The notes beneath the pieces were generated by a model, which worked only from the letters and a program-made list of their open reading frames with translations, searched no databases and was not told where the DNA came from. The translations under genes and the position numbers were made by a program. From Thermoanaerobaculia bacterium (GTDB lineage: Bacteria; Acidobacteriota; Thermoanaerobaculia; Gp7-AA8), in contig DATISF010000028.1 in NCBI GenBank assembly GCA_035468985.1, forward strand, positions 38,937-102,936: 64,000 bases of DNA, given 5' to 3'. This document shows, piece by piece, positions 1,073-64,000 of this stretch (positions are counted from its first letter, which is position 1; each line of letters begins with the position of its first letter).

Positions 1073-1204
1073 CCTCTGAACAAGTCGTCATCCTGAGTCG
1101 GCGAAGCGCGACGAAGGATCTCAGGATGCGAAAACGCCTGCGATTTCGAGATCCTTCGCCGTCTTCGCGGCTCAGGATGACGTGAACAACGACTTGCGCA
1201 GAGG
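1073..1204 (+). repeat. REP/MITE-like palindromic element, copy 1
   Basis: The sequence is CCTCTG..CAAGTCGTCATCCTGAGTCGGCGAAGCGCGACGAAGGATCTC, a roughly 25-bp loop, then GAGATCCTTCGCCGTCTTCGCGGCTCAGGATGACGTGAACAACGACTTGCGCAGAGG. The arms are long and imperfect. The same element recurs at least 10 times in the window. Confidence 0.85.
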
Positions 1205-1329
1205 TTCGCTAGGTCTGGTGCGCCACCTTATCCTCCGGGCACGACCCCCGGCAGCTGCACCAGCACGTCGTTCTGCGGATCGTAGTCCGATGCCGCGTGC
1301 GACGGGCATGTGGCGCATTCGCTAGGGAA

Positions 1330-1453
1330 CCTCTGCGCAAATCGTCATCCTGAGTCGGCGAAGCGCGACGAAGGATCTCAAGATCCGAAAACGCCTGCCA
1401 TTTCGAGATCCTTCGCCGTCTTCGCGGCTCAGGATGACGTGAACAACGACTTG
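1330..1453 (+). repeat. REP/MITE-like palindromic element, copy 2, with the right end slightly truncated
   Basis: It is near-identical to copy 1. A 40-bp flank, ACCAGCGAAAGTCGGTCT(C/A)TTTGCGACA, is directly repeated at 1031-1072 and 1457-1498 on either side of the pair. Confidence 0.85.
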
Positions 1454-1499
1454 TTCCCACCAGCGAAAGTCGGTCTATTTGCGACACGCCACGCTAGCG

Positions 1500-2174
1500 C
1501 TACTCTCCGAGCTTCTGCAGCAGAACTCGCAGCTGCTCGTGAAGTTCCTCGACGCGCGCTTCCAGGCGCGTGACGCGCGCTGACAATGGAGTCCCGGCTT
1601 CAGCCGGGGCCTGCGTTTCGACGACGGCCTCCTCCACCGCCCCACCCGCGGTGTGAACCCAGCGCGATTCCTTCTGTCCCGGCCTCCGCTGCAGCTCGCG
1701 GACGAGGGGCTCGCTGTGCCCAGCCATGTCGCGCAACGTGTCTTCGACTTCCGCAACGGTCTCGAACCGATGCAGCCGGTCGCTTCGCCCGCGCAGTTCA
1801 CCGGGAGTCTGCGGCCCGCGCAGAAACAGCATCGTGATGATCGCCTTTTCCGCCGGCTTGAGATGCCACACCTTGTCGAGGTTGTGGTCGAAGCGCACTG
1901 CTCGCCCGCCCATCACACGCCAGGCGAGCTTCTCGTCCTGCAGGCGATCGAGCGCGCGCTGCACATCCGCTTCAGAAAGCTCCATGACCGGTTCGCGATT
2001 CGATTTCTGATTGCAGGCCGCGACGAGCGCATTGAGCGTCAGCGGATAGTACTCGGGCGTCGAGAGCTGCTTCTCCATCAGGCTGCCGAGGATGCGGATT
2101 TCGGCAGGTTCGAGGGCGCGGGGGATGCGCGGGCGCTGCGGCGAGTCGGTGTCGAGGGTCGGGACGAAGCTCAT
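1500..2174 (-). CDS. yceH: YceH/DUF480-family protein
   Basis: The protein is 224 aa with ...LSTPEYYPLTLNALVAACNQKSNREPVM...FLRGPQTPGELRGRSDRL...LEARVEELHEQ. This is the conserved UPF0502 pattern. The start codon overlaps the upstream gene's stop (ATGA at 2171-2174). Confidence 0.7.
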   Translation of the reverse strand: MSFVPTLDTDSPQRPRIPRALEPAEIRILGSLMEKQLSTPEYYPLTLNALVAACNQKSNREPVMELSEADVQRALDRLQDEKLAWRVMGGRAVRFDHNLDKVWHLKPAEKAIITMLFLRGPQTPGELRGRSDRLHRFETVAEVEDTLRDMAGHSEPLVRELQRRPGQKESRWVHTAGGAVEEAVVETQAPAEAGTPLSARVTRLEARVEELHEQLRVLLQKLGE

Positions 2175-3430
2175 TCGGGGATTGTATCCGTGCGGTGTTC
2201 GGGGTTCGGGGTTCGGGGTTCGCTGGGCCTCTGGCCCTTCGAGCCGCGAATGACGAACACCGGCTCGCGGGCTGTCCTCGGCTGTCCGAAATAGTTGTCC
2301 ACCCTCATCGCCACGCTCCTCGCCAAGGACATGAACGTGGTCAGCTTTCCGCCGAAAACGTTGATCAGGTTGCGGGAGCGGGCCACGCGGGAGTCGCGGG
2401 ATATCGCGCTCGGGTTCGTGGCCCGGCCGACCAGCGGGCGCACGCCGGCGAACGTCGAGGCGATGCCGGCGTGCGAGATCGGCTCGCGAAAGTAGTGATT
2501 GAACCGGGCCAGCAGGTATTCGATCTCCTCATTGGACGGTTCAACGTCGTCGAGCGAATCGCGATGGACGACTTCGGTCGTCCCGACCAGCGTCGTCTCC
2601 TTCCATGGCAGGACAAAAAAGACGCGGCGATCGCTGATCGACTGGAGGAGAAATCCGACATCGCTGACGCGGCGCCTCAGGACGAGGTGGCTTCCACGGA
2701 TCAGCGACAAGACGTATCGCGCACGGATGCGGTTCTGGCGCAGGAGGTCGTTCATCCAGGGGCCGGCTGCGTTCACGACCAGGTCAAACGGCTCCTCCCC
2801 GCGAGCGGAGCGGACGACCCAGCCATCGCCGTTGCGCTGCAGCGAGTCGACACGGGTGTGCTCGAGAACCCTCGCTCCTTCCGATTCCGCGGAGGCGATC
2901 ACCGTCCGCGTGAGCGCGTAATCGTCGGCCTGCGCATCCCAGTACGAAAATCCGCCGCGCAGCCCCTCTGTGATCAGCGGACCGCGCGCGGCGATCTCGC
3001 CGGTCGAGAACGCCCGGTGCCGGTGAATGTTCTTGCGGCCTGCAAGGACGTCGTAGAGCGTCAGGCCGATGCGGATCGTGAACCGCGATCGCGGGCTGTC
3101 CTCGTAGACCGGCAGGAAGATCTCCACCGGCCGGACCAGCTCCGGCAGATGCTCCAGCAGCCAGGCGCGGTCGCGGAGAGACTCGCGTACGACGCCGAAC
3201 TGCAGATGCTCGAGGTAGCGCAGACCGCCGTGGACCATCTTCGTTGAGCGGGACGACGTCTGTGCGCCGCACTCACCCTTCTCGAAGAGCACGACGTCGT
3301 AGTCGCGGCGCGCCAGCTCCCACGCGATGCCGGCGCCATTGATCCCACCGCCCACCACGGCCACACGCTTGCGCCCTGCGGAACGTCGCGCCGCATGATT
3401 CTCGTTCGACGAAATTTTGGCAGATGCCAT
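2171..3430 (-). CDS. FAD-dependent oxidoreductase of the glycerol-3-phosphate dehydrogenase/oxidase (GlpD/GlpO-like) type
   Basis: The N-terminus has the VAVVGGGINGAGIAWELA dinucleotide fold, and a KMVHGGLRYLE motif is present. The start was trimmed to the ATG at 3430 (MASAKISS...), because the upstream part of the long ORF overlaps the divergent patatin gene. The C-terminus carries a (GGGGTTC)3 repeat. Confidence 0.65.
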   Translation of the reverse strand: MASAKISSNENHAARRSAGRKRVAVVGGGINGAGIAWELARRDYDVVLFEKGECGAQTSSRSTKMVHGGLRYLEHLQFGVVRESLRDRAWLLEHLPELVRPVEIFLPVYEDSPRSRFTIRIGLTLYDVLAGRKNIHRHRAFSTGEIAARGPLITEGLRGGFSYWDAQADDYALTRTVIASAESEGARVLEHTRVDSLQRNGDGWVVRSARGEEPFDLVVNAAGPWMNDLLRQNRIRARYVLSLIRGSHLVLRRRVSDVGFLLQSISDRRVFFVLPWKETTLVGTTEVVHRDSLDDVEPSNEEIEYLLARFNHYFREPISHAGIASTFAGVRPLVGRATNPSAISRDSRVARSRNLINVFGGKLTTFMSLARSVAMRVDNYFGQPRTAREPVFVIRGSKGQRPSEPRTPNPEHRTDTIPE

Positions 3431-3433
3431 GCA

Positions 3434-4639
3434 ATGGCTCAGTGCGTGAGCGCGCTGGAGCGCATCGTAACGGCACTGACTCCGAAGGAACAGACCGGCG
3501 ATCTGGCCGTCATGTTGACCGGGGGCGGCGCCCGAGCCGCTTATCAGGTCGGATTGCTCCTTGGCCTCGCCCGCCATTACCCGAACCTGAAATTTCAGAT
3601 CGTCACCGGCGTCTCCGCCGGCGCGATCAACGCCGCGTTTCTCGCGGCACACACGGGATCGCTCGCTCAGAAAGCGCGCGACCTGGAGCAGGTCTGGTGC
3701 GAGCTCGAATGGAGCAGCATCTGGAGCTTCGACTGGAGACGCGCGCTGCCGTTCCATTCGGCGTTCACCTCCATCTTTCCGAAACATCGATGGACGAAGC
3801 CGCAAGGCGCCGTCGACACCGCGCCGCTGGCGCGGCTGCTGTATCGCGTGATGGATGCCAGGCCCGGCCAGCCGATCCGCGGCATCGCCGAAAACCTCGA
3901 GCGCGGAGACCTGCATGCGGTCGCGGTCAATACGCTGGACTATTCGACCGGCCAGAGCGTGCGCTGGGTCCAGGGCCACCACGACGATACGTTCGAGGGC
4001 CCCAACCGGCGTTCCGTCGCCACACACCTCACGGTCGAGCACATTCTGGCCTCCTGCGCGCTGCCGTTCTTCTTTCCGGCCGTGCAGATCGGCTCGCAGT
4101 GGCACGGCGACGGAGGGATCCGTCTCGCCGCGCCGCTCTCTCCCGCCTTACATCTCGGCGCGCGCCGCGTGATCGCCATGTCCACCGGCTACCAGCGCAC
4201 GGATGCCGAAGCGTCGACACCCGTGGTTCGCGGATATCCGCCGGCAGCGCAGATTCTCGGCCAGCTGATGAACGCCATCTTTCTCGACGTCATCGACGAA
4301 GACGTCGTCCGCATGGAGCGGATGAACGACATCATCACGAAGCTCGACGCGCGCGAGCGGGACGGTCTCAAGGCCATCGATCTGCTCGTCCTACGACCTT
4401 CCGAGGATCTCGGGAAGCTGGCCACCGCGTACGAGAAATACCTCCCCCGCTACATGAAGCTATTCACCCGCGCCCTCGGCGCGAAGCAGACCGAGTCGCC
4501 CGATTTCATCTCCCTGCTGATGTTCGAGCCTCGCTACACCCGCGAGCTCATCGACATCGGCAAGGCCGACGTCGACTCCCGGATCGACGAGATCCACGGT
4601 TTCCTCGGAGATGCCGTGCCGCAAATCGCGGCTCTCTGA
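3434..4639 (+). CDS. Patatin-like phospholipase
   Basis: The protein has the GGGARAAYQVG oxyanion motif, the GVSAG (GxSxG) nucleophile motif and a DGG catalytic Asp motif. The start is taken at MAQCVSALE. Confidence 0.75.
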   Translation: MAQCVSALERIVTALTPKEQTGDLAVMLTGGGARAAYQVGLLLGLARHYPNLKFQIVTGVSAGAINAAFLAAHTGSLAQKARDLEQVWCELEWSSIWSFDWRRALPFHSAFTSIFPKHRWTKPQGAVDTAPLARLLYRVMDARPGQPIRGIAENLERGDLHAVAVNTLDYSTGQSVRWVQGHHDDTFEGPNRRSVATHLTVEHILASCALPFFFPAVQIGSQWHGDGGIRLAAPLSPALHLGARRVIAMSTGYQRTDAEASTPVVRGYPPAAQILGQLMNAIFLDVIDEDVVRMERMNDIITKLDARERDGLKAIDLLVLRPSEDLGKLATAYEKYLPRYMKLFTRALGAKQTESPDFISLLMFEPRYTRELIDIGKADVDSRIDEIHGFLGDAVPQIAAL

Positions 4640-4676
4640 CATAATCGCCGGACGAGACTTCAATCTCGGCTCTCTG

Positions 4677-5813: not shown

Positions 5814-5909
5814 TCGTGTCGTGCCGCCGTCCCGGCGGCCTTCAGGGCCGGCCGGAGGCCGGCACCACACGAGCTTGCCTCGATCTTGCAAGAGGCCTAG
5901 CTTGCCATC

Positions 5910-6260
5910 ATGAGAGTCCTGGTCGTCGAACAGAATCCGCGCCTCGCCCTGGCCATCGATCAAGACCAGCAGCGGTTCCCGTTCACGTGCGAGCGGGCCA
6001 GCGACGGCTGGGAAGCGATCGAAAAGCTCGAGGCGGGCGACTACGACGCCATCGTGATCGATGGCGATCTCCCGCGCCGCAGCGGATTCGGCGTGCTGAC
6101 GTATCTGCGCGAGGAAGTCGGCGACGCGCTCGACCGCGTGATCGTCATGACCAGCGCGGATGAAGACACTCTGCGCGGCAGGCTGCGCGAGTCCCACCTG
6201 AAGGTCGTCAGCAAGGACAAGGCGGCCGAGGCGCTGACCGTGGTGCTGGCCTCAGAGTGA
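5910..6260 (+). CDS. Single-domain response-regulator receiver protein with an atypical acidic pocket (EQ in place of DD)
   Basis: MRVLVVEQN...AIVIDGDLPRRSGF...VIVMTSADE...K fits a CheY-like fold. The phosphoacceptor Asp is present, but the first acidic pair is replaced by E-Q. Confidence 0.6.
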   Translation: MRVLVVEQNPRLALAIDQDQQRFPFTCERASDGWEAIEKLEAGDYDAIVIDGDLPRRSGFGVLTYLREEVGDALDRVIVMTSADEDTLRGRLRESHLKVVSKDKAAEALTVVLASE

Positions 6261-7628
6261 GCGCAGGATCGCTGCCGCGCTCCGCTCCACATCCTCCTCC
6301 GTCGTGGCCCAGTTCGAGACCGAGATTCGCATCGCCGCCATCTTATGCCAGACGGTTCCCGCCAGCCAGCACGTTCCGTCCTGCTGGACGCGGGTGATGA
6401 CGTCGCGCGTGCGCTGATCGTCGTCGCCGAAGCGGACGAGCACCTGATTCAGCGTGACGTCGTTGAGAATCCTCACCCGGTCGTCCCGTTGGAGGATCTC
6501 TGCGAACTGCCGCGCGCGATCGCAGAGCCGGTCGATGAGGTCCTCGACGCCGAGCCGGCCGAGCGTGCGCAGCGCTGCGTAGACGGAAATTCCTCGAGCG
6601 CGGCGCGAGAATTCCGGCGTCCAGTCGACGCTGTCGCGCTCCCTGCCGGTGGTCTGTTCGAGGTAGGCGGCGCTCGCGGTCATCGATGCCCGATGCGCAA
6701 CAGAATCGCGAACGATCGCCACTCCGCAGTCGTACGGCACGTTCAGCCATTTGTGCGCGTCGGTGGCCCAGGAATCGGCGAGCTCGACTCCATCGATCAA
6801 CTCGCGTTTGCGGCGGCTGGCCGAGGCCCACAGGCCGAAGGCTCCGTCGATGTGGAGCCAGGCGCCGCGCTCGCGGGTCTCCGTGGCGATCTCGCGCAGC
6901 GGATCGAATGCGCCGCTGTTCACGTTGCCGGCCTGCGCACAGACGATGGTCGGGCCGGAGAGCTTGCGCAGCGCGTCGCGCAGACCGTCCGCGCGCATGC
7001 GTCCCTGCTCGTCGGTCGGGACGTGAACGGCGTGCGTTCCGAGACCGAGGTACCGCAGCGCGACAAAGATCGTGACGTGCGACTCATCGCTGACGACGAT
7101 GTTCACTTTCGGCGCGCCCTGCAGCCCATCCTCTTCCACGTTCCAGCCGGCGTTGCCCAAAACGGCGTGCCTGGCCGCGGCCAGGCAGGTGAAGTTCGAC
7201 ATCTGGCCGCCCGTGGTGTAGCCGACACTGGCCTCGCGCGGAAGACGAAACAGATCGAGGAGCCATTCCCGCGCAACATCCTCGGCCACGGCCGCGATCG
7301 GCGAGGCCGCGTAGAGGCCGGCGTTCTGATCCCACGCGGCGACCATCCACTCGGCGCCGACGGTCACCGGGAGTGACCCGCCGATGACGAATCCGAAAAA
7401 TCGCGGTGACGGAGTCGCCATCGTCCCACGCTCGGCTGCCACCGCCAGAGCATCGAGCACCGCGGTCGCATCTTCGCCGTCATCAGAGAGGGGCACGCTG
7501 AGTGAGCGATTCAGCTCCTCCAGCGTGGCGCGAGGGCCTACGGGGCGGTCGGGAACCGCGCGGAGGAAGGTACTGGCATGTTGAAAGGCACGGCGGAGGA
7601 TTGCTTCATCAAAAATCGCTAACGGCAT
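6252..7628 (-). CDS. Group II pyridoxal-phosphate-dependent amino-acid decarboxylase, resembling diaminobutyrate or tyrosine decarboxylases
   Basis: The protein is 458 aa and contains ATDAHKWLNVPYDCG, the PLP-binding Lys region. The overall pattern matches the aspartate aminotransferase-fold decarboxylases. Confidence 0.75.
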   Translation of the reverse strand: MPLAIFDEAILRRAFQHASTFLRAVPDRPVGPRATLEELNRSLSVPLSDDGEDATAVLDALAVAAERGTMATPSPRFFGFVIGGSLPVTVGAEWMVAAWDQNAGLYAASPIAAVAEDVAREWLLDLFRLPREASVGYTTGGQMSNFTCLAAARHAVLGNAGWNVEEDGLQGAPKVNIVVSDESHVTIFVALRYLGLGTHAVHVPTDEQGRMRADGLRDALRKLSGPTIVCAQAGNVNSGAFDPLREIATETRERGAWLHIDGAFGLWASASRRKRELIDGVELADSWATDAHKWLNVPYDCGVAIVRDSVAHRASMTASAAYLEQTTGRERDSVDWTPEFSRRARGISVYAALRTLGRLGVEDLIDRLCDRARQFAEILQRDDRVRILNDVTLNQVLVRFGDDDQRTRDVITRVQQDGTCWLAGTVWHKMAAMRISVSNWATTEEDVERSAAAILRSL

Positions 7629-7639
7629 GCGTCGATAAT

Positions 7640-9255: not shown

Positions 9256-9256
9256 A

Positions 9257-16898: not shown

Positions 16899-16903
16899 TG
16901 CCC

Positions 16904-16978
16904 GTCATCCTGAGCGGAGCGAACGACCTCAGGTTACGCGTCAGGAGATCCTTCGCCGTCTTCGCGGCTCAGGATGAC
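16904..16978. repeat. Short variant of the REP-like palindromic element
   Basis: The sequence is GTCATCCTGAGCGGAGCGAACGACCTCAGG...GAGATCCTTCGCCGTCTTCGCGGCTCAGGATGAC. Confidence 0.7.
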
Positions 16979-16988
16979 CTCTCCGACG

Positions 16989-18349: not shown

Positions 18350-18860
18350 ATGACCAGGAACGGACGAAGCGCGCCGGCATGACGGCTGGGGAATCCTTGC
18401 GCAGGTCGTTGCTCACGTCATCCTGAGCCGCGAAGACGGCGAAGGATCTCGAAATGGTACGCGTTTTCGCATTCTGAGATCCTTCGTCGCGCTTCGCCGA
18501 CTCAGGATGACGTGAACATCCAGGGGCGGATGGCCACGGCAACGAGGGCGGCCACGACGATCGCCGACGATCGCCGCGCTCGCGGCCGGTGCAATCATTG
18601 CCCTGCTGACCAGGAACGGACGACGCGCGCCGGCATGACGGCTGGGGAATCCTTGAGCAAGTCGTTGTTCACGTCATCCTGAGCCGCGAAGACGGCGAAG
18701 GATCTCGAAATGGCACGCGTTTTCCCATCCTGAGATCCTTCGTCGCGCTTCGCCGACTCAGGATGACGTGAACATGGCCACGGCAACGAGGGCGGCCACG
18801 ACGATCGCCAACGATCGCCGCGCTCGCGGCCGGTGCAATCATTGCCCTGCTGACATGGTC
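18350..18860. repeat. Two tandem copies of a roughly 260-bp composite unit, each containing a reverse-oriented REP-like element (18396-18516 and 18651-18773) plus about 120 bp of spacer
   Basis: The segments starting with GACCAGGAACGGACGA at 18350 and 18609 are near-identical. The REP arms are GTCATCCTGAGCCGCGAAGACGGCGAAGGATCTC and GAGATCCTTCGTCGCGCTTCGCCGACTCAGGATGAC. Confidence 0.8.
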
Positions 18861-18874
18861 GCTGCGCTGCTTCC

Positions 18875-21397: not shown

Positions 21398-22195
21398 ATG
21401 CGCATCGTCCAGATCGTTCTTCCCGCCGTCACCGCGTTCGAGGAGAAGTGCCGCCGCGTCGATCACTCGACTCTCTCCACGAGACACGAAGTCCTCGTCG
21501 CCGGACCGAAGGAACCTCTGCCCGCCGCGGATGTCGCCCACGTGTACGGCCCCGGCGAACTTCCGGCTGCTGCCTTCATCGGGTTTCGACTCCCTTATGT
21601 CGCATCCTCTGAGCCAGTTGGGCGGGCCTGGGTTCGAAAGCCGGCGCGGCCTGCCTACGTGCTGTCGCCGTTGGAGAGTCCGGAGCCGGTGGAGGAGGTC
21701 TTCTTCCAACTCGAGTCCCGAATCCCGAGCCCCGAGTCCCACGTGCTCGGATCGTTTGCGAGGTCGTCGATCGCCAACCTCATCGAGCAGACGCTGGGCC
21801 GCATTCGCCGTTTCCGCGACGATGTCGAGTGGCGGCTTTTCGAGCGCGCGCCGACGCCCGAGGATCTAGCCGGCGTAGACGCGTGGGTCGATCCTGCCAC
21901 CGCCGAGGATGATCTCGACGGCTTCGTCGCCGAGGCGCTCGTGTCGGGCAAACCCGTTGTGGCATCGAGAATTACGATCAATTTGCAGCGCCTCGAAAAA
22001 GGGCGCACCGGCTTCCTCGTTCCGCCGGGAGATCCCAACGAGCTCACTCATGCGATACTAACTGCCCTATTCAAGCCAGAGGTGGCGCGAACGAAAATTG
22101 AGGCAGCACGACAGACCGCCGGCAAGTTCCGGCCCAGGCAACGCCTTCGTCTGCTCGAGCGTATCTACGAGACCGTGATGAAGCCGTCATCCTGA
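21398..22195 (+). CDS. Truncated or degenerate family-1 (GT4-like) glycosyltransferase with an internal heptamer repeat
   Basis: The C-terminal half, FVAEALVSGKPVVASRI...GRTGFLVPPGDPNELTHAIL, is a GT4 C-terminal domain. The protein has only 265 aa against about 370 expected. A (GAGTCCC/GAATCCC) repeat lies at 21706-21733 in the middle. The 3' end runs into a REP-like hairpin. Confidence 0.4.
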   Translation: MRIVQIVLPAVTAFEEKCRRVDHSTLSTRHEVLVAGPKEPLPAADVAHVYGPGELPAAAFIGFRLPYVASSEPVGRAWVRKPARPAYVLSPLESPEPVEEVFFQLESRIPSPESHVLGSFARSSIANLIEQTLGRIRRFRDDVEWRLFERAPTPEDLAGVDAWVDPATAEDDLDGFVAEALVSGKPVVASRITINLQRLEKGRTGFLVPPGDPNELTHAILTALFKPEVARTKIEAARQTAGKFRPRQRLRLLERIYETVMKPSS

Positions 22196-22246
22196 GCGAA
22201 GCGAAGGATTCTCGTCCCCGAGACTCTTCGCTTCGCCCAGAGTGAC
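22186..22246. repeat. Short REP-like hairpin variant
   Basis: The sequence is GTCATCCTGAGCGAAGCGAAG-gattctcgtccccgagact-CTTCGCTTCGCCCAGAGTGAC. It overlaps the stop of the GT-like ORF. Confidence 0.6.
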
Positions 22247-22252
22247 GTCCAG

Positions 22253-25851: not shown

Positions 25852-26282
25852 ACATCGAGGTCACCGGCCATGCCGTTCCGCGGCTGACCCGGCGCGAGAT
25901 CGCTGCGTTCGTGAGAAGAGTGCTCCTGAAACTCGATGTCGACGAAGAAATCACGGACGTGTCCATCGCATTCGTCGACGACCCGTCGATGAAGAGCCTC
26001 AACCGGAAATTCCGGCACAAGAACCGGACCACCGACGTGCTCACCTTCCCTGCCGATGAGACCTACGGCGATCCGCACCGCAAGGGCAAACCACTCGGCG
26101 ACATCGTCGTTTCCGTCGATCAGGCCAGGCGCCAGGCCGCCGAAGAGCGCCATTCCATCGCAACGGAGGTCCGCTATCTGCTCGTGCACGGCGTCCTTCA
26201 CGCACTCGGCTATGACCACGAGAACGACAACGGAGAGATGAACGAGCTGGAGCTTGATGTGCGGGAGGCCGTGGGCCTCTAA
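25848..26282 (+). CDS. ybeY: Endoribonuclease YbeY (rRNA maturation factor)
   Basis: The zinc-binding motif HGVLHALGYDHE is present. The size is typical at 144 aa. Confidence 0.85.
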   Translation: MNIEVTGHAVPRLTRREIAAFVRRVLLKLDVDEEITDVSIAFVDDPSMKSLNRKFRHKNRTTDVLTFPADETYGDPHRKGKPLGDIVVSVDQARRQAAEERHSIATEVRYLLVHGVLHALGYDHENDNGEMNELELDVREAVGL

Positions 26283-26287
26283 GGGAA

Positions 26288-26942
26288 CCTCCGCGCAAGT
26301 CGTCATCCTGAGTCGGCGAAGCGCGACGAAGGATCTCAGGATTCGAAAACACGTGCCATTTCGAGATCCTTCGCCGTCTTCGCGGCTCAGGATGACGTGA
26401 ACGACGACTTGCGCAGAGGTCCACAAGTACTGCTGTGGCACGGTAAGTACTGCTGTGGCCGCGGCGCAGCACATCGATCTTCTCTCGCATATGACGGTGT
26501 CGCACTTCGCATCGCTGTTCAGGGATGTCCCCTAGGGAAGCTCTGCACAAGTCGTTGATCACGTCATCCCGAGTCGGCGAAGCGCGACGAAGGATCTCCG
26601 GATGCGATAACGCCTGCCATTTCGAGATCCTTCGCCGTCTTCGCGGCTCAGGATGACGTGAACGACGACTTGCGCAGAGGTCCACAAGTACTGCTGTGGC
26701 CACGGCAAGTACTGCTGTGGCCGCGGCGCAGCGCATCGATCTTCCCTCGCATATGACGGCGCTGCACTTCGCATCGCTGTTCAGGGATGTCCCCTAGGGA
26801 AGCTCTGCACACGTCGTTGATCACGTCATCCTGAGTCGGCGAAGCGCGACGAAGGATCTCCGAATGCGACAACGCCTGCCATTTCGAGATCCTTCGCCGT
26901 CTTCGCGGCTCAGGATGACGTGAACAACGACTTGCGCAGAGG
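26288..26942. repeat. Tandem array of three REP-like elements (26288-26419, 26539-26680, 26802-26942) separated by two near-identical roughly 115-bp spacers
   Basis: The period is about 250-260 bp. The spacers contain the internal direct repeat AAGTACTGCTGTGGC twice. Confidence 0.85.
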
Positions 26943-26946
26943 TCGA

Positions 26947-28092
26947 CTAGAACTCGATGATGCCGTCCTTCCAGAGCTTGTAGAAGATCATCAGCGCATC
27001 GGCCTCTCGGATCGGGCTGATCTTGATCAGCGATCCAATGTCCCACGTTCCGTTGATGCGCGAGAGGATGAAGCCCTCGTTCGGAGTGAAGTTCATGGTC
27101 GTGATCTCTTCGAGCGACTTCGTGACGCGGGGGACTTCGTTGTCGTGAATCCCCTGATTCCGCAGTTCGGCCATGATGACCGCCTCGGCGCCCTTGACCG
27201 CGCTGCGGACTTTCGGGTGATTGGAGTCGAGATTCTGCGCCGCCTTCAGCAGCCGCTGGGTCTTGTCGAAGTCCTTGGCGCGTAGTGCGGTCTGGGCGGC
27301 GCTGAGGAGCGAGTTGATCTCGTCGGACTCGTTGAAGCCCGCTTCCACCGCCGGGAACGGCTCCGGCTCGGCAGGCGCCCCGCCCGCCACCGCCGCTTCC
27401 AGCAGCTGAATGAACCCGGCCCGCACGAGCGGGCGCAACGTCGAACAGACGATGAATGACGACGAACGGCTTTCCAGCACGATCTCGGCGATGGTCCGCT
27501 TGCCGTCGATCGAGTCGATCACCTGTGTCTGTGCCTCGCCGAATTCTTCATCGACCTCGATCGGCTTCTGCACCACCGGCACGACCGCGTCGTTCGGAAT
27601 CACCTCGCGGATCCGCGGCCATTCGTCCGATCGCCGCGTCCCCTCCATGATGATCCCGGTGACGTCGATGCGCAGCGGCACCATTTCCATCTGTGGCAAC
27701 TCGTCGTCGAGGAATTGGAAAGTCCCCTCTTTCCACAGGAAGACGTCGAAGATCTCCTCCTCCGCCTTGAGGCGCATGAGCCGCGTCAGGTCCTTCTCGG
27801 TGATGAGGCCAATGATGACCAGAATCTTGCCGAGAAGGATGCTCGACTGCTGCTGGACCTCCATCGCCTTGCGCAGCTCTTCCTCGTTCAGATAGCCGTG
27901 GCTCATCAGGAACTGGCCGAGGTATTCGCGGGGATCGTTGGATGCGGAGGAGATGACGCGGCCGGACTCGAAGAAGATCTTCTTTTCGACGTCCTTGCTG
28001 GTGACGACGAGAGTGCCGGTCTTCTGCGCCAGGCTCAACCACTGAAGCAGGTCGCCCGGCAGCATCGACTTCAGGTTACCGCTGACTCCCAT
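26947..28092 (-). CDS. DUF4388-domain protein, second paralog
   Basis: The N-terminus, LPGDLLQWLSLAQKTGTLVVTSKDVEKKIFFESGRVISSASND...LGQFLMSHGYLNEEEL, matches the DUF4388 pattern. Confidence 0.6.
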   Translation of the reverse strand: MGVSGNLKSMLPGDLLQWLSLAQKTGTLVVTSKDVEKKIFFESGRVISSASNDPREYLGQFLMSHGYLNEEELRKAMEVQQQSSILLGKILVIIGLITEKDLTRLMRLKAEEEIFDVFLWKEGTFQFLDDELPQMEMVPLRIDVTGIIMEGTRRSDEWPRIREVIPNDAVVPVVQKPIEVDEEFGEAQTQVIDSIDGKRTIAEIVLESRSSSFIVCSTLRPLVRAGFIQLLEAAVAGGAPAEPEPFPAVEAGFNESDEINSLLSAAQTALRAKDFDKTQRLLKAAQNLDSNHPKVRSAVKGAEAVIMAELRNQGIHDNEVPRVTKSLEEITTMNFTPNEGFILSRINGTWDIGSLIKISPIREADALMIFYKLWKDGIIEF

Positions 28093-36860: not shown

Positions 36861-36868
36861 CTAAGGAA

Positions 36869-37010
36869 CCTCCGCGCAAGTCGTCGTTCACGTCATCCTG
36901 AACCGCGAAGACGGCGAAGGATCTCGAAATCGCGGCGTCTTGCGCATCCTGAGATCCTTCGTCGCGGTTCGCCGACTCAGGATGACGACTTGTGCAGAGG
37001 TTCTGTCTCA
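36869..37010 (-). repeat. REP/MITE-like palindromic element in reverse orientation
   Basis: The sequence is CCTCCGCGCAAGTCGTCGTTCACGTCATCCTGAACCGCGAAGACGGCGAAGGATCTC...GAGATCCTTCGTCGCGGTTCGCCGACTCAGGATGACGACTTGTGCAGAGG. Confidence 0.85.
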
Positions 37011-55921: not shown

Positions 55922-55959
55922 GAATAACTATCCTCGACGCAGGAAACGGAGGAGAAGTG

Positions 55960-56850: not shown

Positions 56851-56866
56851 TGAAGCCGGTGCTCCA

Positions 56867-58453
56867 TCACACCTTCCTCGAGATCGCCTTGGCCTGCAGA
56901 AACAGCCCAAGGTAATCGCGACCGCCGGCCTTCGAATCCGTGCCGGACATGTTGAATCCGCCGAACGGATGCACGCCGACGAGCGCGCCGGTGCACTTGC
57001 GATTGAAGTAGAGGTTGCCGACGAAAAACTCATCAGAGGCCCGGCGAATCTTCTCCTCGTTGTCCGTGAAGACCGCGCCCGTCAGGCCGTACTGGCTGTC
57101 ATTCGCGATCCGCAGCGCGTCGTCGAAGTCTCTGGCCTTGATGACCGCGAGCACCGGCCCAAAGATTTCTTCCTGCGCGATCGTCGAATCCGGCGACACG
57201 GGGCCGATCACCGTGGGCTCCACGAAGAAGCCTTCCTTCGCATCGACATTTCCGCCCGCCAGGATCTGGCCTTCGCGGCTCCCTTTCTCGATGTACTCCT
57301 TGATCTTCTTCATCGCCGACTCGTTCACGACCGGACCGACGTTGGAGTCGGCCGATTCCGGCGCGCCGAGCTTCAGCTTCTTCGTCTTCTCGACGACCAG
57401 CGGCATGAAGCGGCCGTAGATGGCCTCGTCGACGATCAGCCGCGAGCACGCGGAGCACTTCTGTCCCTGGAACCCGAATGCGGAGGCCACGACCGCGCTC
57501 GCCGCGTCGTCGAGGTTCTTCGTCTCACGGTCGACGATGATCGCGTCTTTACCGCCCATCTCCGCGATCACGCGCTTGATCCAGACCTGCCCCGTCGGCG
57601 TCTTCGCCGCTTCCGCGTTGATGTGCAGCCCCACTTCCTTCGAGCCGGTGAACGAGATGAAGCGGATGCGAGGATGCTGAATGAGCGGATCGCCGACTTC
57701 CCCACCCGAGCCGCTCAGAAAATTGGCGACCCCCGCCGGCATGCCGGCCTCCTCGAGCAGCGCGAGGAAGCGATAGGCGATCCACGGCGAGTCGGACGAC
57801 GGCTTCAGGATGACGCAATTGCCGGTCACGATCGCGGCCGTGGTCATGCCGGCCATGATGGCCAGCGGGAAGTTCCACGGCGGAATGACGGCGCCCACTC
57901 CGAGCGGGATGTAGACCAGCTCATTCTTCTCCGAATCGATCCTCGTGATCGGCTGCTCGCCGCCGTAGCGGTATGCCTCGCGCGCGTAGAACTCCAGAAA
58001 ATCGATGGCCTCGGCCGTATCGGCATCCGCTTCGGGCCATGTCTTGCCGACTTCGTAGACCATGGTGGCGGAGAATTCGTGTTTCCGCTGGCGCAGCAAC
58101 GCGGCCGCTTTCAGCAGCAGCCCGGCGCGGACCCCGACCGGCTGGCGCTTCCAGCTCTCGAACGCCTTCCACGCCGCGTCGATCGCTTTCTCGACATGAG
58201 CCTTCGTTCCCTTCTGAAACCTCCCGAGGAGCTCGGTTTTGTGCGAGGGGTTGATCGAGTCGAACGTCTTGAGGCCGGTGATGCGCTCACCGCCGATGAT
58301 CAGCGGGTATTCACGGCCGAGCTCGTTTTTTACTTTCGCCAAAGCCGCTTCCATCGCAGACTTGTTCTGGGGATTCTTGAAATCGGTCAGCGGCTCGTTC
58401 CGGAACGGAGCGAGAGTCTGCGGTTTGGTCTCGGGTTCAGTCACAGTCGTCAT
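56867..58453 (-). CDS. pruA: L-glutamate gamma-semialdehyde (1-pyrroline-5-carboxylate) dehydrogenase
   Basis: The aldehyde dehydrogenase fold has the catalytic Cys in FGFQGQKCSACSR and Glu in EMGGKD. The N-terminus FRNEPLTDF is typical of RocA/PruA. Confidence 0.8.
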   Translation of the reverse strand: MTTVTEPETKPQTLAPFRNEPLTDFKNPQNKSAMEAALAKVKNELGREYPLIIGGERITGLKTFDSINPSHKTELLGRFQKGTKAHVEKAIDAAWKAFESWKRQPVGVRAGLLLKAAALLRQRKHEFSATMVYEVGKTWPEADADTAEAIDFLEFYAREAYRYGGEQPITRIDSEKNELVYIPLGVGAVIPPWNFPLAIMAGMTTAAIVTGNCVILKPSSDSPWIAYRFLALLEEAGMPAGVANFLSGSGGEVGDPLIQHPRIRFISFTGSKEVGLHINAEAAKTPTGQVWIKRVIAEMGGKDAIIVDRETKNLDDAASAVVASAFGFQGQKCSACSRLIVDEAIYGRFMPLVVEKTKKLKLGAPESADSNVGPVVNESAMKKIKEYIEKGSREGQILAGGNVDAKEGFFVEPTVIGPVSPDSTIAQEEIFGPVLAVIKARDFDDALRIANDSQYGLTGAVFTDNEEKIRRASDEFFVGNLYFNRKCTGALVGVHPFGGFNMSGTDSKAGGRDYLGLFLQAKAISRKV

Positions 58454-58515
58454 GGGTGATCCTTTCTCGGAGAGCCCGGCGCCCAAGTTGCAGTGGCCGG
58501 GAAAAAGAAGTCGGA

Positions 58516-59241
58516 ATGTTATCGAAATCGCTTCCGCTAGCAATAACAGCGCTCGTTGCCGGTCTGTTCACGTCGTGCTCAGTTCTGCCGTGGCAGGGAC
58601 AAGCTCCCGCGAATGAGGTCAACCTGGGCTTCACCCTGGAGAACAATCTGATCTTCCTGACTACCGCGGAGATCAACAATCATGGCGGCCGCATATTCTT
58701 CGGCTCCGCGCATTCACGCACGATCGTCGATCCGGCCTTCGTGGAACGGGCCGGCGGCGGGCGGTATGTGCTGCAGCTGAATCACCGCCAGTCGATTCCC
58801 TTCGATCCCGTGGTCATGAGTCTCGGGGGCGTTGGAGATGCGCTCGTCGGCGCGGACGTCTGGGACGCGAAGGCTGTCACCATCGATTACCGGACGGGGC
58901 TTCTCACGTGGCAGAAGGACGGGATCTATCCCGACTACATGACGCTGTTCCAGTTCGAAGCCGAGCCGAAAGTGATCGCCGAGGTCGACGGGCGTGCGAC
59001 GCCGGTCGTCGTCGACACAGCTCTTCCGGACACGCTCGTTCTGCCGCGCGGCTCGCACGCCGCCGGGCGCCGCAGCGCGCGGGTGACGATCGCCGGAACC
59101 GACTTCGGGAGTGTCGATGTCGCTCTCGGCGACGTCTCGCGGGCACGCATCGGAAACCGTTTGCTTTCGAAGTTCCTCGTGTCGGTCGATTACGGGCGCC
59201 GGCAGGTCGGGCTCTGGCGCGATCCACGGATTCCGATGTGA
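58516..59241 (+). CDS. Hypothetical secreted or lipoprotein, possibly a degenerate retropepsin-like fold
   Basis: The N-terminus is a signal with a lipobox (LFTSCS). VVVDTALPDT weakly resembles the DTG of clan-AA proteases. This is a low-confidence call. Confidence 0.35.
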   Translation: MLSKSLPLAITALVAGLFTSCSVLPWQGQAPANEVNLGFTLENNLIFLTTAEINNHGGRIFFGSAHSRTIVDPAFVERAGGGRYVLQLNHRQSIPFDPVVMSLGGVGDALVGADVWDAKAVTIDYRTGLLTWQKDGIYPDYMTLFQFEAEPKVIAEVDGRATPVVVDTALPDTLVLPRGSHAAGRRSARVTIAGTDFGSVDVALGDVSRARIGNRLLSKFLVSVDYGRRQVGLWRDPRIPM

Positions 59242-59280
59242 CCGGATAGAATCGGACAGGCAGTCAAATCGAGGAGGATT

Positions 59281-60522: not shown

Positions 60523-62550
60523 TCAGGCCGCCGTCCGGGAGAACCGAACGATCTTCCAGCCGTCCGGCGTGCGCTTCAGCTCGTAGACGAGGTTCTGCAC
60601 GCCGGGCGGTGTCCCGCTTTCGGCGAACGTATCGGTGCGCCGGACCGCGACCGTGGCGTCGCCCTCGTCGGTGAACTGAATGCTCTTCACGACGATGTCG
60701 ACGCGCGTCGATGGCGAGTTGCGGATCGCGCTCGCGAGCTGGTCGGTGAAATTCATCGCGCGCTGCCGGAAGAACCCGACGTTCTTGTCCTGATACGCCA
60801 TGGCGATTTCGCGCATGAACGTGTGGATCTCGCGTTCGAGATCGGCGCGAGATGGCTTCGGCGGCGGAGCCGGAGCGGTCGTGACGGTGGCCGGCTGAAC
60901 CGGGGCCGGCGATGGCGTGACAACGGTCGTCTGCGTCAACACGGCGACGGGAGGCGGCGCCTCGGTCTCGGTGTGCGCGATGACCGGCCCCTTCGGCGGC
61001 CTGATGGGCTTTCCAGGCGACGCGGCCGCGGTCGTGGTCGCCACCGCTGGAACGCCATTGGAAGAAAGAAGATCCCGGAGCGTCTGACTCGCCTGCGACG
61101 CCAGCGCCGCGCCGCCGGCGTAATCCTTGTCTGCGATTCTCGCGCGCGCGTTCTCCAGTTGCCGGTTTGCGTCGTCGTAACGCACGCGCTCATCGGGCGT
61201 CAGATGCCGCTGAGCGACAAGACCGGCCAGCGTCGTCGCTGTGGCCAGCTGCACGTCTGATTCACGCGATGCGGCGTCGTTCTGCGCGGAAGCGGTGACC
61301 GTGGTGACCGTCGTCGCAGGCAGCGTGGCCTTCGCCGGGCGCGGTTGCTGCTGGGCCGGCTGACGGTTTCGCGCGACGAGAAAGGCCACTCCGGCAATCA
61401 CGACCAGAGCCACCGCGGCGATCGCTGCGAACGGCGCTCGCTTGGTGCGCACCGGTTCCTCCGGGACGATGACGGTCTGTTCCGCCCGCTGCACCTCGGG
61501 CCGCGCCCTGGTCTTGGCCAGCGTCGGATCCGCCGGCGGTCTTACCACTTCCGTGGCGCCGGCTTCGCCGCTCTCGCTGGCAAGCCTCAAGGTCGGCGAT
61601 TCCTCCATCGCACCCGATGGCATGCTCCGTCCCGACGAGTACGGATTGAGCGATGCGGGAAGGTCTCCCTCCATCCAATTGAATGGCTCGGACTGCGGCT
61701 CGGCCGCCATATACGCAAGGCACGACTCCGACCGCGCGAACGTCTCAATGTCGGCCACGAAGTCCGCGGCGCTCGTGTATCGGTCGGCCGGATCGCGCGC
61801 AAGCGCCTTCATGATCACGTCATCGAGCTCCGCCGGATATCCGGTCAGCGTCGACACGAGCGGCGGCATCGGACCGCCGAGAATCTTGCTGATGATTTCG
61901 GGCGTGGTGTCGCCGGGAAAGGCGCGGCGATAGGTCAGGAACTCGTATGCCACGGCGCCGAGGGCGAAGATGTCGTCCTGCGGGCCGGTGTCGCCGCTGA
62001 ATCGCTCCGGCGACATGTACGCGATCGTTCCGCTGAGATATCCGGTCTTGGTCAGACGGGTGTTGTCGAATCGCGCCAGACCGAAATCGAGGATCTTCGG
62101 CACGCCGCGCGAAGTCACACACACGTTCGACGGCTTCATGTCGCGATGGACGACGCCCGACTCGTGAGCGTACGCCAGACCGCGGCCGATCTGCAGCACG
62201 ATCGGCAGGCGGGCCGAAAGCGGAATCGTCACCTTGGCATTGATGACGCGCGAGAGATTGATCCCCTCCACGCACTCCATGACGATGTAGGAGAGCGACT
62301 CCTCTTCGCCGAAGTCGTAGATGGTGACGATGTTCGGGTGGTGAAGCTTGCCGGCGGACCGCGCTTCCATCCGGAGCCGGCCGACCTGATCGTCTTCGGC
62401 ATCGCTGTCGATCCGGATCGTCTTGACGGCCACGATGCGGTCGATGAACGGATCGCGGGCCTTGTAGACGACACCCATCCCGCCGCGCCCGATGACGCCG
62501 AGAACCTCGTATTTCCCGATCTTTGTCGGGACAGCTGACGCGGTCTCCAC
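60523..62550 (-). CDS. Ser/Thr protein kinase with one TM segment and a C-terminal NTF2/SnoaL-like extracytoplasmic domain
   Basis: Kinase motifs GRGGMGVVYKA, VAVK, HRDMKPSNV, DFG and SPE are present. A TM helix lies near residue 360. The last about 120 aa fit an NTF2-like fold. Confidence 0.8.
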   Translation of the reverse strand: METASAVPTKIGKYEVLGVIGRGGMGVVYKARDPFIDRIVAVKTIRIDSDAEDDQVGRLRMEARSAGKLHHPNIVTIYDFGEEESLSYIVMECVEGINLSRVINAKVTIPLSARLPIVLQIGRGLAYAHESGVVHRDMKPSNVCVTSRGVPKILDFGLARFDNTRLTKTGYLSGTIAYMSPERFSGDTGPQDDIFALGAVAYEFLTYRRAFPGDTTPEIISKILGGPMPPLVSTLTGYPAELDDVIMKALARDPADRYTSAADFVADIETFARSESCLAYMAAEPQSEPFNWMEGDLPASLNPYSSGRSMPSGAMEESPTLRLASESGEAGATEVVRPPADPTLAKTRARPEVQRAEQTVIVPEEPVRTKRAPFAAIAAVALVVIAGVAFLVARNRQPAQQQPRPAKATLPATTVTTVTASAQNDAASRESDVQLATATTLAGLVAQRHLTPDERVRYDDANRQLENARARIADKDYAGGAALASQASQTLRDLLSSNGVPAVATTTAAASPGKPIRPPKGPVIAHTETEAPPPVAVLTQTTVVTPSPAPVQPATVTTAPAPPPKPSRADLEREIHTFMREIAMAYQDKNVGFFRQRAMNFTDQLASAIRNSPSTRVDIVVKSIQFTDEGDATVAVRRTDTFAESGTPPGVQNLVYELKRTPDGWKIVRFSRTAA

Positions 62551-62593
62551 GATGCACTCATTCTAGCGCCCGATGCAGTGATAAAAGGAGCGA

Positions 62594-63832
62594 GTGAGGT
62601 CGCGCGCGGCCGTCTTTTTCGCCGTTTTGTTCATGATTCCGGCCGCTGAAGCGGAGACGTTCGATCTCCGGGGCTTCGTGACGGGCCGCGGCATGTACGT
62701 GACCGGCCAGCCGTCGTGGATGCAGGGCGGTTTCGGCCGGTTTGATGCCGGCGGCGAGGGAGTGAATCGAGGGCGAGGTGCTGCCGTCGCCGACGTGCAG
62801 CTCGGCTTCGACTGGCAGCCGGTCAAGCACGTCCTGGTGCACGCGCATGGAGACGCTCGTGCCGAGCCGTCTGAGAATCGCGGCCGCCGCGCCGGCCTCG
62901 TCAGCGCGTATGTGGAAGGAGATTGGGAGCGCGGCCGTAACGAGCTCCTCGTCCGGGCTGGACAATTCTTCCCCGGCACGTCGCGCGAAAACGTGGCGGA
63001 GCTCTGGTCTTCGCCTTACACCCTCACCGGCTCGACGCTGAACAGTTGGGTCGCCGAGGAAGTGCGGCCGATCGGCGTCAATGCGGAATGGAGAGTGCTG
63101 ACGTCCACCGCGCTCATCACAACGTCCGCAACCGCATTCCGTGGGAACGACTCGATGGGCGGATTGCTCGCCTGGCGCGGATGGACTGCCGGCAACCGGC
63201 TCACCGTTTTCAAGGAAGTTCTGCCGCTGCCGCCGCTGCGATCGCTGAATCAGGTGTTCATCCATCAGCGGCGCGACGGAACGAAACCGTTCGGGACGGA
63301 TCTCGACGGGCGCACCGGCTACGCCGCGCGCATCCGCTACGCCATTCCAGAGCGCGCGAGCATCCAGTTCACGCGCATCGACAACGAGGGCGATCGCCGT
63401 TTGCACCGCGGCGAATACGCCTGGAGAACGCCCTTCAACATCCTCGGCGCCGACGCTCACTTCGGTGATGCCACACTGGCCAGCGAGTGGATGTCCGGAA
63501 AATCAGGAATGGGTGATCCACGCGCGAACTCCATCGACATCGACTTCTACTCAGCCTACCTCCTCGGTTCCTACAAAAGCGGCCGCAACCGGCTCTCGGC
63601 GAGGTACGAGATCTTCGCGACGCATGACCGCCATCCGGTTGCCGGCGATCGTTACGACGAGCACGGCCGCGGATGGACGTTCGCCTGGCTGCTCGACGTA
63701 ACCAGCCACGTGCGCGGCGGAATCGAATTCACGCAGATTGCGGGAACTCATCAAGAGGCGGGTGACTCGGGATTCAGTCCGGTGATCGACGGGCGCAGCG
63801 TCATGCTCGAGATGCGCTACAGCATCCGCTAG
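62594..63832 (+). CDS. Outer-membrane protein (porin-like, uncharacterised family)
   Basis: A signal peptide is followed by beta-strand periodicity. The C-terminus is ...EMRYSIR. Confidence 0.45.
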   Translation: MRSRAAVFFAVLFMIPAAEAETFDLRGFVTGRGMYVTGQPSWMQGGFGRFDAGGEGVNRGRGAAVADVQLGFDWQPVKHVLVHAHGDARAEPSENRGRRAGLVSAYVEGDWERGRNELLVRAGQFFPGTSRENVAELWSSPYTLTGSTLNSWVAEEVRPIGVNAEWRVLTSTALITTSATAFRGNDSMGGLLAWRGWTAGNRLTVFKEVLPLPPLRSLNQVFIHQRRDGTKPFGTDLDGRTGYAARIRYAIPERASIQFTRIDNEGDRRLHRGEYAWRTPFNILGADAHFGDATLASEWMSGKSGMGDPRANSIDIDFYSAYLLGSYKSGRNRLSARYEIFATHDRHPVAGDRYDEHGRGWTFAWLLDVTSHVRGGIEFTQIAGTHQEAGDSGFSPVIDGRSVMLEMRYSIR

Positions 63833-64000
63833 GACCTCTGCGCAAGTCGTCATCCTGAGTCGGCGAAGCGCGACGAAGGATCTCAGGATGCGAAAACGCG
63901 GCGATTTCGAGATCCTTCGCCGTCTTCGCAGATTGCGGGAACTCATCAGGAGGCGGGTGACTCGGGATTCAGTCCGGTGATCGACGGGCGCAGCGTCATG
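63739..64000. repeat. Direct duplication of about 190 bp (3' end of the OMP gene plus the truncated REP). The second copy starts at 63929 and runs off the window.
   Basis: The segments 63739-63810 and 63929-64000 are identical except for 1 mismatch. The junction is at the microhomology CGCAG. Confidence 0.75.
63833..63928 (+). repeat. Truncated REP-like element (left arm and loop only)
   Basis: The sequence is CCTCTGCGCAAGTCGTCATCCTGAGTCGGCGAAGCGCGACGAAGGATCTC...GAGATCCTTCGCCGTCTTCGC. It is then interrupted. Confidence 0.8.

Follow-up and report, generated by a model that had tools for sequence, protein, structure and literature searches.

In a 64,000-nucleotide (nt) stretch of the genome of a Thermoanaerobaculia bacterium (GenBank assembly GCA_035468985.1, contig DATISF010000028.1, positions 38,937 to 102,936; the whole stretch is called the window here), short palindromic elements stand at the ends of ordinary chromosomal genes. 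These elements are probably chimeric: a miniature transposable element bounded by inverted repeats (MITE) with the ends of an IS5-type insertion sequence (IS) would have captured an inverted dimer of repetitive extragenic palindromic (REP) units resembling the CGTC-tagged class, would insert at CTAG or CTAA and hence at gene ends, and would then have been duplicated locally in tandem. MITEs and REPs are known kinds of repeat; the chimeric build, the architecture of the REP unit, and the host phyla are new.

An earlier note, made from the sequence of the window, had listed 11 sites of a "REP/MITE-like" palindrome. All 11 exist, and both halves of that name are right: "REP" fits the core, an inverted dimer of that type, and "MITE" fits the outer arms, which are terminal inverted repeats of the MITE type. 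Nine sites are noncoding composites of ~130 to 150 bp at six separate loci within the 64 kb; two further sites are bare cores. Alignment of the 11 sites resolved two layers, an inner hairpin of ~95 nt (GTCATCCTGAG...GAAGGATCTC, ~24 nt, GAGATCCTTC...CTCAGGATGAC) and, around it in nine copies, outer arms of the form GGAACCTCTGCGCAAGTCG(TTGWTCAC), and gave the consensus CTAG-GGAACCTCTGCGCAAGTCG-(TTGATCAC)-GTCATCCTGAGTCGGCGAAGCGCGACGAAGGATCTC-~24 nt-GAGATCCTTCGCCGTCTTCGCGGCTCAGGATGAC-GTGAACAACGACTTGCGCAGAGGTTC-CTAG. When the window was searched with up to three mismatches allowed, the 36-nt left arm occurred nine times, each with at most one mismatch (shuffled sequences expect 0). The 11-mer GTCATCCTGAG occurred 21 times against 1.3 expected. 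The match of this 11-mer at 57804 sits within a coding gene and was discarded as a chance match. The complete copy at 1066 to 1213 folds as the single long hairpin that had been anticipated, at -88.3 kcal/mol as RNA (z = -9.4) and at -48 kcal/mol as DNA (z = -8.2). The composites encode spurious open reading frames (ORFs) only, as suspected earlier; the spurious ORF VILSRRSATKDLRMRKRLRFRDPSPSSRLRMT is a direct translation of the core. The 11 copies (c1 to c11) are as follows.

1066 to 1213 (element 1070 to 1209), plus strand: c1, complete composite, with CTAG on both sides (1066 to 1069 and 1210 to 1213).
1322 to 1453 (element 1326 to 1453), plus strand: c2, composite, with CTAG at 1322 to 1325 and no right outer arm.
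16903 to 16979, no strand assigned: c3, bare REP dimer without outer arms, made of a degenerate 28-nt unit and an exact 35-nt unit.
18390 to 18519, minus strand: c4, composite with a single outer arm (GGAATCCTTGCGCAGGTCGTTGCTCAC), in unit 1 of a 256-bp tandem duplication.
18646 to 18775, minus strand: c5, composite with a single outer arm, in unit 2 of the 256-bp tandem duplication.
22185 to 22247, no strand assigned: c6, bare REP heterodimer of two 28-nt units, the second with a compensated stem (ACTCT/AGAGT).
26283 to 26423, plus strand: c7, composite, starting right after the ybeY stop codon, which lies within CTAA at 26279 to 26282.
26536 to 26684, plus strand: c8, composite, with CTAG at 26532 to 26535 and a left arm (GGAAGCTCTGCACAAGTCG) of the right-end type of the related IS.
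26798 to 26950 (element to 26946), plus strand: c9, composite, with CTAG at 26794 to 26797 and 26947 to 26950.
36861 to 37005 (element from 36865), minus strand: c10, composite, with CTAA at 36861 to 36864 and no CTAR at the other end.
63830 to 63926 (element from 63833), plus strand: c11, composite, starting at the TAG of a gene of 412 amino acids (aa) and cut short within its right REP unit.

Soil metagenomes contain CTAG-flanked, ~1.2-kb IS of the IS5 family whose terminal inverted repeat is identical to the outer arm GGAACCTCTGCGCAAGTCG. The 19-nt arm matched 26 metagenome contigs, 3 of which (L099, L101, and L104) are one locus in three samples, and YTAR precedes the arm in 14 of the 26; on L104 and L106 it forms the left terminus of an IS, ~1.16 to 1.19 kb long, that is bounded by CTAG at either end. 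The interior of this IS is 46.9% identical over 286 aa (E = 1e-69) to InsH of Escherichia coli IS5, and the copies on L104 and L106 carry stop codons that interrupt the reading frame. Intact relatives of 292 aa, 87 to 95% identical over the C-terminal domain, contain PF01609 and PF05598 and are named IS5 family transposase; the ends of their IS read CTAA-GGAGACTCTGCACAAG... and ...GTGCAGAGCTTCC-TTAA. The other end of the IS is also represented in the window, where the left arm of c8 and c9 is exactly the right-end type GGAAGCTCTGCACA seen at the right ends on L104 and L108. IS5 duplicates YTAR and has ends of the form GGAAGGTGCGAA...; a real E. coli IS5 copy, used as a check, begins CTAA-GGAAGGTGCGAACAAGTCC... 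and ends with GGAAGG in reverse complement followed by CTAA. Aligned in the same register, the window arm and the E. coli IS5 end share 13 of their 19 positions. The usual target duplication of IS5 is reported to be CTAG (PMC10379815).

Other MITEs share the arms and are unrelated inside (the one on L092, for example, lies between two CTAG sites), and one MITE with the same arms (L085) contains other REP units. Because these elements share arms and differ inside, the shell is a generic IS5-type MITE frame, with the REP dimer as its cargo in the window. The elements on the metagenome contigs L086/L088, L094, L096, and L105, with the same IS5-type arm, have interiors that hold a different short hairpin repeat, GGGCACGGCTTTAGCCGTGCC and variants, so that the IS5-type shell holds different small hairpin repeats in different lineages. 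Like known IS5-derived MITEs, the window elements are short, noncoding, and multicopy, with terminal inverted repeats identical to those of an IS, CTAG or CTAA flanks, and an empty orthologous site. Unlike them, they have an interior that is a REP-type hairpin dimer and not a deletion remnant of the IS, many copies have one arm lost or degraded, and the available host sequence yielded no partner transposase.

The element ends abut the tetranucleotide targeted by IS5. The window holds 19 CTAG, 8 CTAA, and 2 TTAG (29 in total) compared with 745 GATC, and 10 of these sites (8 CTAG and 2 CTAA) abut element ends, accounting for 10 of the 13 preserved ends. The target preference proposed in the earlier note is borne out by these flanks and by the relatives' ybeY and patA_N stop codons, which are present without the element. 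As a test of target duplication, c1 has CTAG on both sides, 10 of 13 ends lie at CTAR, and the other ends are without it; CTAG is palindromic, and the pre-insertion sequence of the strain is what such a test needs. Window-wide, CTAG is ~40-fold rarer than GATC, and TGA ends 37 of the 50 genes from a crude gene call (which contains errors; ybeY, for example, was missed).

The same rarity is the main explanation of the stop-codon pattern. CTAG and CTAA are nearly absent from a genome of 63% G+C except near TAG and TAA stop codons and in intergenic DNA, and since these very rare tetranucleotides often contain such a stop codon, copies come to lie exactly at gene ends. The window sites are 0 to 20 nt past a stop codon, between codirectional or convergent genes, and the flanking genes are ordinary chromosomal ones: DUF480, a LOG-family gene (Pfam Lysine_decarbox), SPOR, TPR, DUF4388, glycosyltransferase, PolyA_pol, PhoH, YbeY, PatA_N, and a TonB-type outer-membrane protein. 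The statement that copies begin exactly after stop codons is partly right. It holds for ybeY (TAA at 26280 to 26282), patA_N (CTA at 26947 to 26949, minus strand, within the right-flank CTAG of c9 at 26947 to 26950), and the 412-aa gene (TAG at 63830 to 63832), in each of which the element end shares the stop codon. The outer-membrane protein gene (the porin) ends 70 nt from the element, the TGA of the glycosyltransferase gene (22193 to 22195) is within a unit of c6, and the TGA of an 82-aa ORF ends one base before the CTAA of c10. Copy c6 occupies the gap between the glycosyltransferase gene and the start of PolyA_pol (22253), and c3 sits 11 nt downstream of the stop codon of the SPOR-domain gene (16989, minus strand).

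The ybeY/patA_N site was compared with that of relatives. The YbeY C terminus ends at ...VGL, give or take one codon, in 21 homologues, and the ybeY stop codon of the window is therefore native. Relatives with 82 to 83% identical YbeY retain the convergent ybeY/patA_N pair. In three of them (L078 to L080), 10 nt separate the two stop codons (CTG TAG ccgtcagtcg TTA GAATTC), compared with 664 nt in the window. In another (L077, 1936 to 2011; Joint Genome Institute [JGI] 3300085980), the gap is a 76-nt palindromic microsatellite, a hairpin of 7-nt repeats in which (CGTTAGT)n precedes (CGACTAG)n and in which TTAG and CTAG abound. A further relative (L081, 1957 to 2094; GCA_038244815.1, JBBRTB010000018.1) has a different MITE of ~125 bp with CTAG on both sides, the right one being the patA_N stop. 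Because the orthologous gap is empty or holds other inserts, the element is an insertion, and the stop codon belongs to the target, not to the element. To judge from these gaps, the ybeY/patA_N interval is an insertion hot spot. The arms of the L081 MITE, GAGTCTGCGCG(G/C)CAGAA, resemble the window shell (..TCTGCGC..), and its interior is without REP units. L059 was rejected as an empty-site comparison since its neighboring gene differs. Exact-protein look-ups of the flanking genes for strain variants left two proteins unrecorded, and the others led to contigs that end inside repeats.

The core is an inverted pair of 28- to 37-nt units of the form (C/T)GTC-ATCCT-GA-G..C-GNA-G..C-GA-AGGAT-CTC, each of which folds on itself; the general unit is (C/T)GTC, A-YYCY, GA, G, an optional 3-bp stem, C-GNA-G, C, GA, RGRR-T, and CTC. 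The exact 34-nt right arm occurs in at least 72 places in the genome collection. Among the matches listed are metagenome-assembled genomes (MAGs) with the labels Acidobacteriota (Thermoanaerobaculia and others), Verrucomicrobiota (Chthoniobacterales, Udaeobacter, and others), and Gemmatimonadaceae, several of the matches being on contigs of 0.2 to 1.2 Mb; the core units are thus present, among these matches, in many genomes of at least two phyla, or three by record label. The element is therefore not confined to this locus, a possibility that had been left open: many genomes have core units, and 26 metagenome contigs have the outer arm. At the other loci this arm frequently has a partner of another length and another sequence, which indicates that the arms are independent units.

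For an analysis of pairing, units were collected by a pattern that does not require pairing, in which the unpaired letters and the first A-T pair are the only fixed positions. In the 35-nt class, 98.9% of positions were paired and both-sided changes occurred at 6 of 10 pairs, compared with 27 to 50% pairing in slid controls. None of 500 shuffles reached the percentage paired, the count of doubly changed cells, or the covariation score, and 2 of 500 reached six doubly changed pairs. The 28-nt class was 98.5% paired, with compensation at three of seven pairs. Outer-stem variants include ATCCT/AGGAT, ACCCT/AGGGT, ATTCC/GGAAT, ATCCC/GGGAT, ATTCT/AGAAT, and ACGCT/AGCGT. Because a variant left unit is commonly paired with a standard right unit, constraint acts within each unit and not on the long hairpin. 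Of 201 units, the base preceding GTC is C in 132 and T in 63.

Adjacent units have their tags outward in 88 of 95 pairs, with spacers that peak at 14 and 25 nt, and heterodimers of 28- and 35-nt units are common. The same 37-plus-35-nt heterodimer as in the window was found without the shell in another Acidobacteriota genome (L057 and L058). The idea that bare REP dimers generally sit within longer palindromic targets was rejected, as complementarity ends at the tag in 79 of 88 dimers. Some bare dimers are flanked by short tandem repeats (L033, ~110 to 300; L058, ~1270 to 1440; L020, ~5920 to 5960; L022, ~7140 to 7200), which on L033 and L058 lie on both sides of the dimer in inverted orientation; examples are GGCAGAAGGCAGA.../...TCTGCCTTCTGCC and GGCTCAAAGGCGCAAAGG.../...CCTTTGAGCC. 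On L030 (~1950 to 2190; JAFAVZ010000247.1), a head-to-tail array with periods of ~42 nt contains a single REP unit half in each period (..GGATCCTTCGCCGTCTTCGCGGCTCAGGATGACAAAGGTAC..), a tandem organization that is rare within the unit family.

The units come closest to the CGTC-tagged REPs described by Di Nocera, De Gregorio, and Rocco in 2013, which include dRS3 of Neisseria and RPE-4 and RPE-6 of Rickettsia and were never found associated with a transposase gene (PMC3733652). Common to both are a CGTC or TGTC tag that is left unpaired, a stem that opens with A-T, a tail length of 3 nt, a total length of ~27 to 28 nt (short class), a predominance of tags-outside (HH) dimers, frequent heterodimers, a location downstream of ORFs, near-identical units across distant phyla, and no linked transposase. 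The four described CGTC families have perfect stems of 8 to 9 bp, loops of 4 to 5 nt, and a CCA tail, whereas the window units have a 5-bp stem, tandem G.A/A.G mismatches, a further 2 to 6 bp, a GNA triloop, and a CTC tail. The tail is conserved across the units as CTC, CCC, or CCG (the CGTC-REP consensus is CCA), and an 8- to 9-bp stem with a 4- to 5-nt loop was not found in the units, although the stem starts with A-T/T-A. Because the mismatches, the triloop, and the tail differ, we keep the unit apart from the four described families and treat it as a putative new family that would work like a CGTC REP. REP dimers inside longer palindromes were reported, and left unexplained, for H. neapolitanus and A. 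variabilis (PMC3733652); the window element is of this composite kind, a REP dimer enclosed in a longer palindrome. A literature search by sequence string returned primer coincidences only.

Several copies are part of tandem duplications of the element together with neighboring DNA, a feature absent from the earlier note. The arrays have periods of 195 to 262 bp and are local duplications. In the 256-bp duplication (18351 to 18606 and 18607 to 18862), the repeated parts are 96 to 99% identical, and the array stops 20 nt from the stop codon of the DUF4388 gene (18875). The three-copy array at 26283 to 26946 is bounded by CTAA with the ybeY stop and by CTAG with the patA_N stop. Its two spacers (26421 to 26542 and 26682 to 26804, overlapping slightly with the copy ends) are 94% identical; c7 is without the 8-nt TTGATCAC, which c8 and c9 contain. 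In the 195-bp duplication (63732 to 63926, and 63927 onward past the edge of the window), the last 100 nt of the gene are repeated behind the truncated element, and the junction is a CGC microhomology. Each spacer of the three-copy array (26424 to 26470 and 26685 to 26731) opens with an internal direct repeat, AAGTACTGCTGTGGC, present twice, 9 to 10 nt apart. The remaining features of the window are as follows.

887 to 1067, no strand assigned: a second, unrelated MITE-like inverted repeat, with 33-nt arms at 887 to 919 and 1035 to 1067.
26424 to 26797, no strand assigned: the stretch from c7 to c9, made of two spacers and c8, with an array period of 261 to 262 bp.
63927 to 64000, plus strand: the duplicated 3' end of the gene, 99% identical to 63732 to 63805.

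The 33-nt arms (AGTGTGGCGTGTCGCAAATAGACCGGCTTTCGC) of the second MITE-like repeat are 115 nt apart, and its ends likewise read C(T/G)AG; the CTAG at the start of c1 is supplied by its right end. A solo arm of this repeat lies at 1463 to 1495, 3 nt from the stop codon of the DUF480 gene, and c2, truncated at 1453, is joined to a solo arm of an inverted repeat other than its own. The interval from 816 to 1499 is a mosaic in which small elements are nested. Mosaics made from short palindromic repeats and repeated spacers are familiar from the neisserial intergenic mosaic elements and from MITEs of the Correia and enterobacterial repetitive intergenic consensus (ERIC) types, which have TA-containing targets, end at gene ends, and are transcribed as hairpins. 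RNA-processing effects have been shown for these elements and are conjecture for the window element, with which they are not known to have a sequence relationship.

The reading given above has to be weighed against other origins of the same repeats. Since REP-type units that fold on themselves make up the core as an inverted doublet, the element could be a REP doublet forming hairpin (REPIN), copied via single-stranded DNA by a single-copy HUH tyrosine transposase (REP-associated tyrosine transposase, RAYT) encoded elsewhere, in which case the outer arms would be incidental. The doublet occurs at high copy in many genomes without the shell, two shell-less dimers are in the window, and Acidobacteria encode RAYT-like genes (terminal inverted repeat-associated tyrosine transposases [TIRYT], class 3 TnpA-Y1) with high-copy hairpins (PMC3733652; PMC6006769). 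The window copies share with the REPINs of Bertels and Rainey and of Nunvar et al. the inverted doublet, the capacity to form one long hairpin, the high copy number, and the extragenic location. Even so, we consider a REPIN-RAYT origin unlikely. Unlike REPINs, the copies are without the GTAG tag and have DDE-type inverted repeats and a YTAR flank, and no RAYT was found in the sequence searched; the GT[AG]G tag of such systems was not present in the units, which have CGTC or TGTC, and REPs tagged with CGTC have never been associated with a transposase (PMC3733652). A RAYT partner elsewhere in the genome, which the earlier note had envisaged, received no support: 12 published RAYT and TIRYT queries (5 of them acidobacterial) gave no tblastn match either in the window or in the ~590 kb that surround a further 72 copies, and the arms match IS5-family DDE elements instead. 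No transposase recurred beside the copies, as all-against-all clustering of the ORFs at the 72 loci returned only paralogous families of large size (kinases, response regulators, and ABC ATPases). The shell and the CTAR flanks of the composites are left unexplained by the RAYT mechanism.

A function at the RNA level would account for the position of the copies in a different way. On this account, the element is selected by the host at 3' ends, where its hairpin terminates or attenuates transcription or shields mRNA from 3' exonucleases. The hairpin is very stable, the sites lie just past stop codons of codirectional or convergent genes, and such roles are established for REP and bacterial interspersed mosaic elements (BIMEs) in E. 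coli and proposed for REPs generally (PMC3733652; PMC12306157). As the origin of the family, we find this decidedly unlikely; an RNA role is compatible with the data as a later co-option, not as an origin. The terminator-like role raised in the earlier note received no support, and an intrinsic terminator was rejected, since no T-run was found in the sequences following the hairpins and there was no site in 26000 to 27300. No Rfam 15 family matched at gathering thresholds over the whole window, and the sole matches in an E-value scan of the three-copy array were look-alikes of microRNA precursors that fell far short of the threshold. Copies that are truncated or one-armed persist, and the CTAR flank accounts for the position without function. 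Relatives have nothing, or inserts of other kinds, at their ybeY/patA_N site and can thus dispense with the element there, which also argues against this account. That the arrays result from mis-assembly of repeats is very unlikely, even though the source is a MAG and contigs from another sample break in the arrays (the match of L001 stops at 26666, and L074 ends 393 nt past patA_N). Array members differ, both in their spacers (94% identical) and in TTGATCAC (lacking in c7, present in c8 and c9); an independent assembly, 99.3% identical, reproduces c7, spacer, and c8; and the copies dispersed elsewhere stand independently of the arrays. Those contigs, from a strain 99.3% identical (European Nucleotide Archive ERZ27272673; L001, 3800 to 6435, and L074, 3647 to 4039), end or switch locus, to an ALAD gene, inside the array, likely an assembly break or a chimera due to the repeat. 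Finally, imperfect palindromes of 60 to 140 bp just after ORF ends, some in short tandem arrays, bring to mind integron-like attC sites, with the 195- to 262-bp periods as small gene cassettes. We regard an attC cluster as extremely improbable and rejected it on the sequence of the element ends, which read GGAACC.../...GGTTCC and not RYYYAAC/GTTRRRY; in addition, the copies lie dispersed between housekeeping genes across 63 kb with no integrase nearby, and the array spacers are duplicated noncoding DNA or a duplicated gene 3' end.

Several observations weigh against a REP dimer captured in an IS5-type MITE. The two IS copies with the exact arm have interrupted frames, and a tblastn search with IS5 InsH gave no significant match in the window or in those loci of related genomes that were sampled. 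CTAR is missing at the right end of c10, at ends of c4 and c5, and at the right ends of c7 and c8 (CAAG), and because CTAG is palindromic, a target duplication and a part of the inverted repeat are inseparable by sequence at any single copy. The first two to three bases of the right arm vary (CGAACC, TGGACC, TCGACC, and AGAACC), which is unusual for the ends of an active transposon and suggests that many copies are decaying. The exact 30-nt junction of shell and core had zero matches in JGI metagenomes, so the composite subfamily may belong to a narrow lineage. The one place outside the window where the composite was seen is a 12-kb contig from a Gemmatimonadaceae bin (L041); a MAG of group 7 Acidobacteria has 78 to 83% nucleotide identity to another part of the window.

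With these points taken into account, we still favor the IS5-type shell with REP cargo as the likely explanation. The shell would consist of the terminal inverted repeats GGAACCTCTGCGCAAGTCG and GGAAGCTCTGCACA..., the ends of the ~1.2-kb IS5-group IS. Since these are IS ends, an IS5-type DDE transposase encoded elsewhere could move the element in trans, and insertion would occur, as for IS5, at CTAG or CTAA (YTAR) with duplication of the tetranucleotide. The cargo would be an inverted dimer, tags outward, of the 28- to 37-nt REP-type unit that many soil bacteria also carry without the shell, and a dimer of this kind may have entered the shell by capture. After insertion, local duplication of the element with neighboring DNA, probably aided by the hairpin, would have built the arrays of 195- to 262-bp period.

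The elements have consequences for both annotation and gene expression. They give rise to spurious ORFs and fragment metagenome contigs, as in the two contigs from another sample that end in arrays. Through them, ybeY and other genes also have a -88 kcal/mol hairpin in their 3' untranslated region, where it may affect mRNA stability or read-through. The host range of CGTC-like REPs is extended to two or three further soil phyla. More broadly, CGTC-type REPs might spread partly as cargo in the shells of DDE-transposase MITEs, with the unit kept constant by a recognition machinery common to Acidobacteriota, Verrucomicrobiota, and Gemmatimonadota, a speculative extension that we think rather unlikely. 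Carriage within an IS5-type MITE would offer a concrete, testable route by which REPs without a transposase of their own may be copied.

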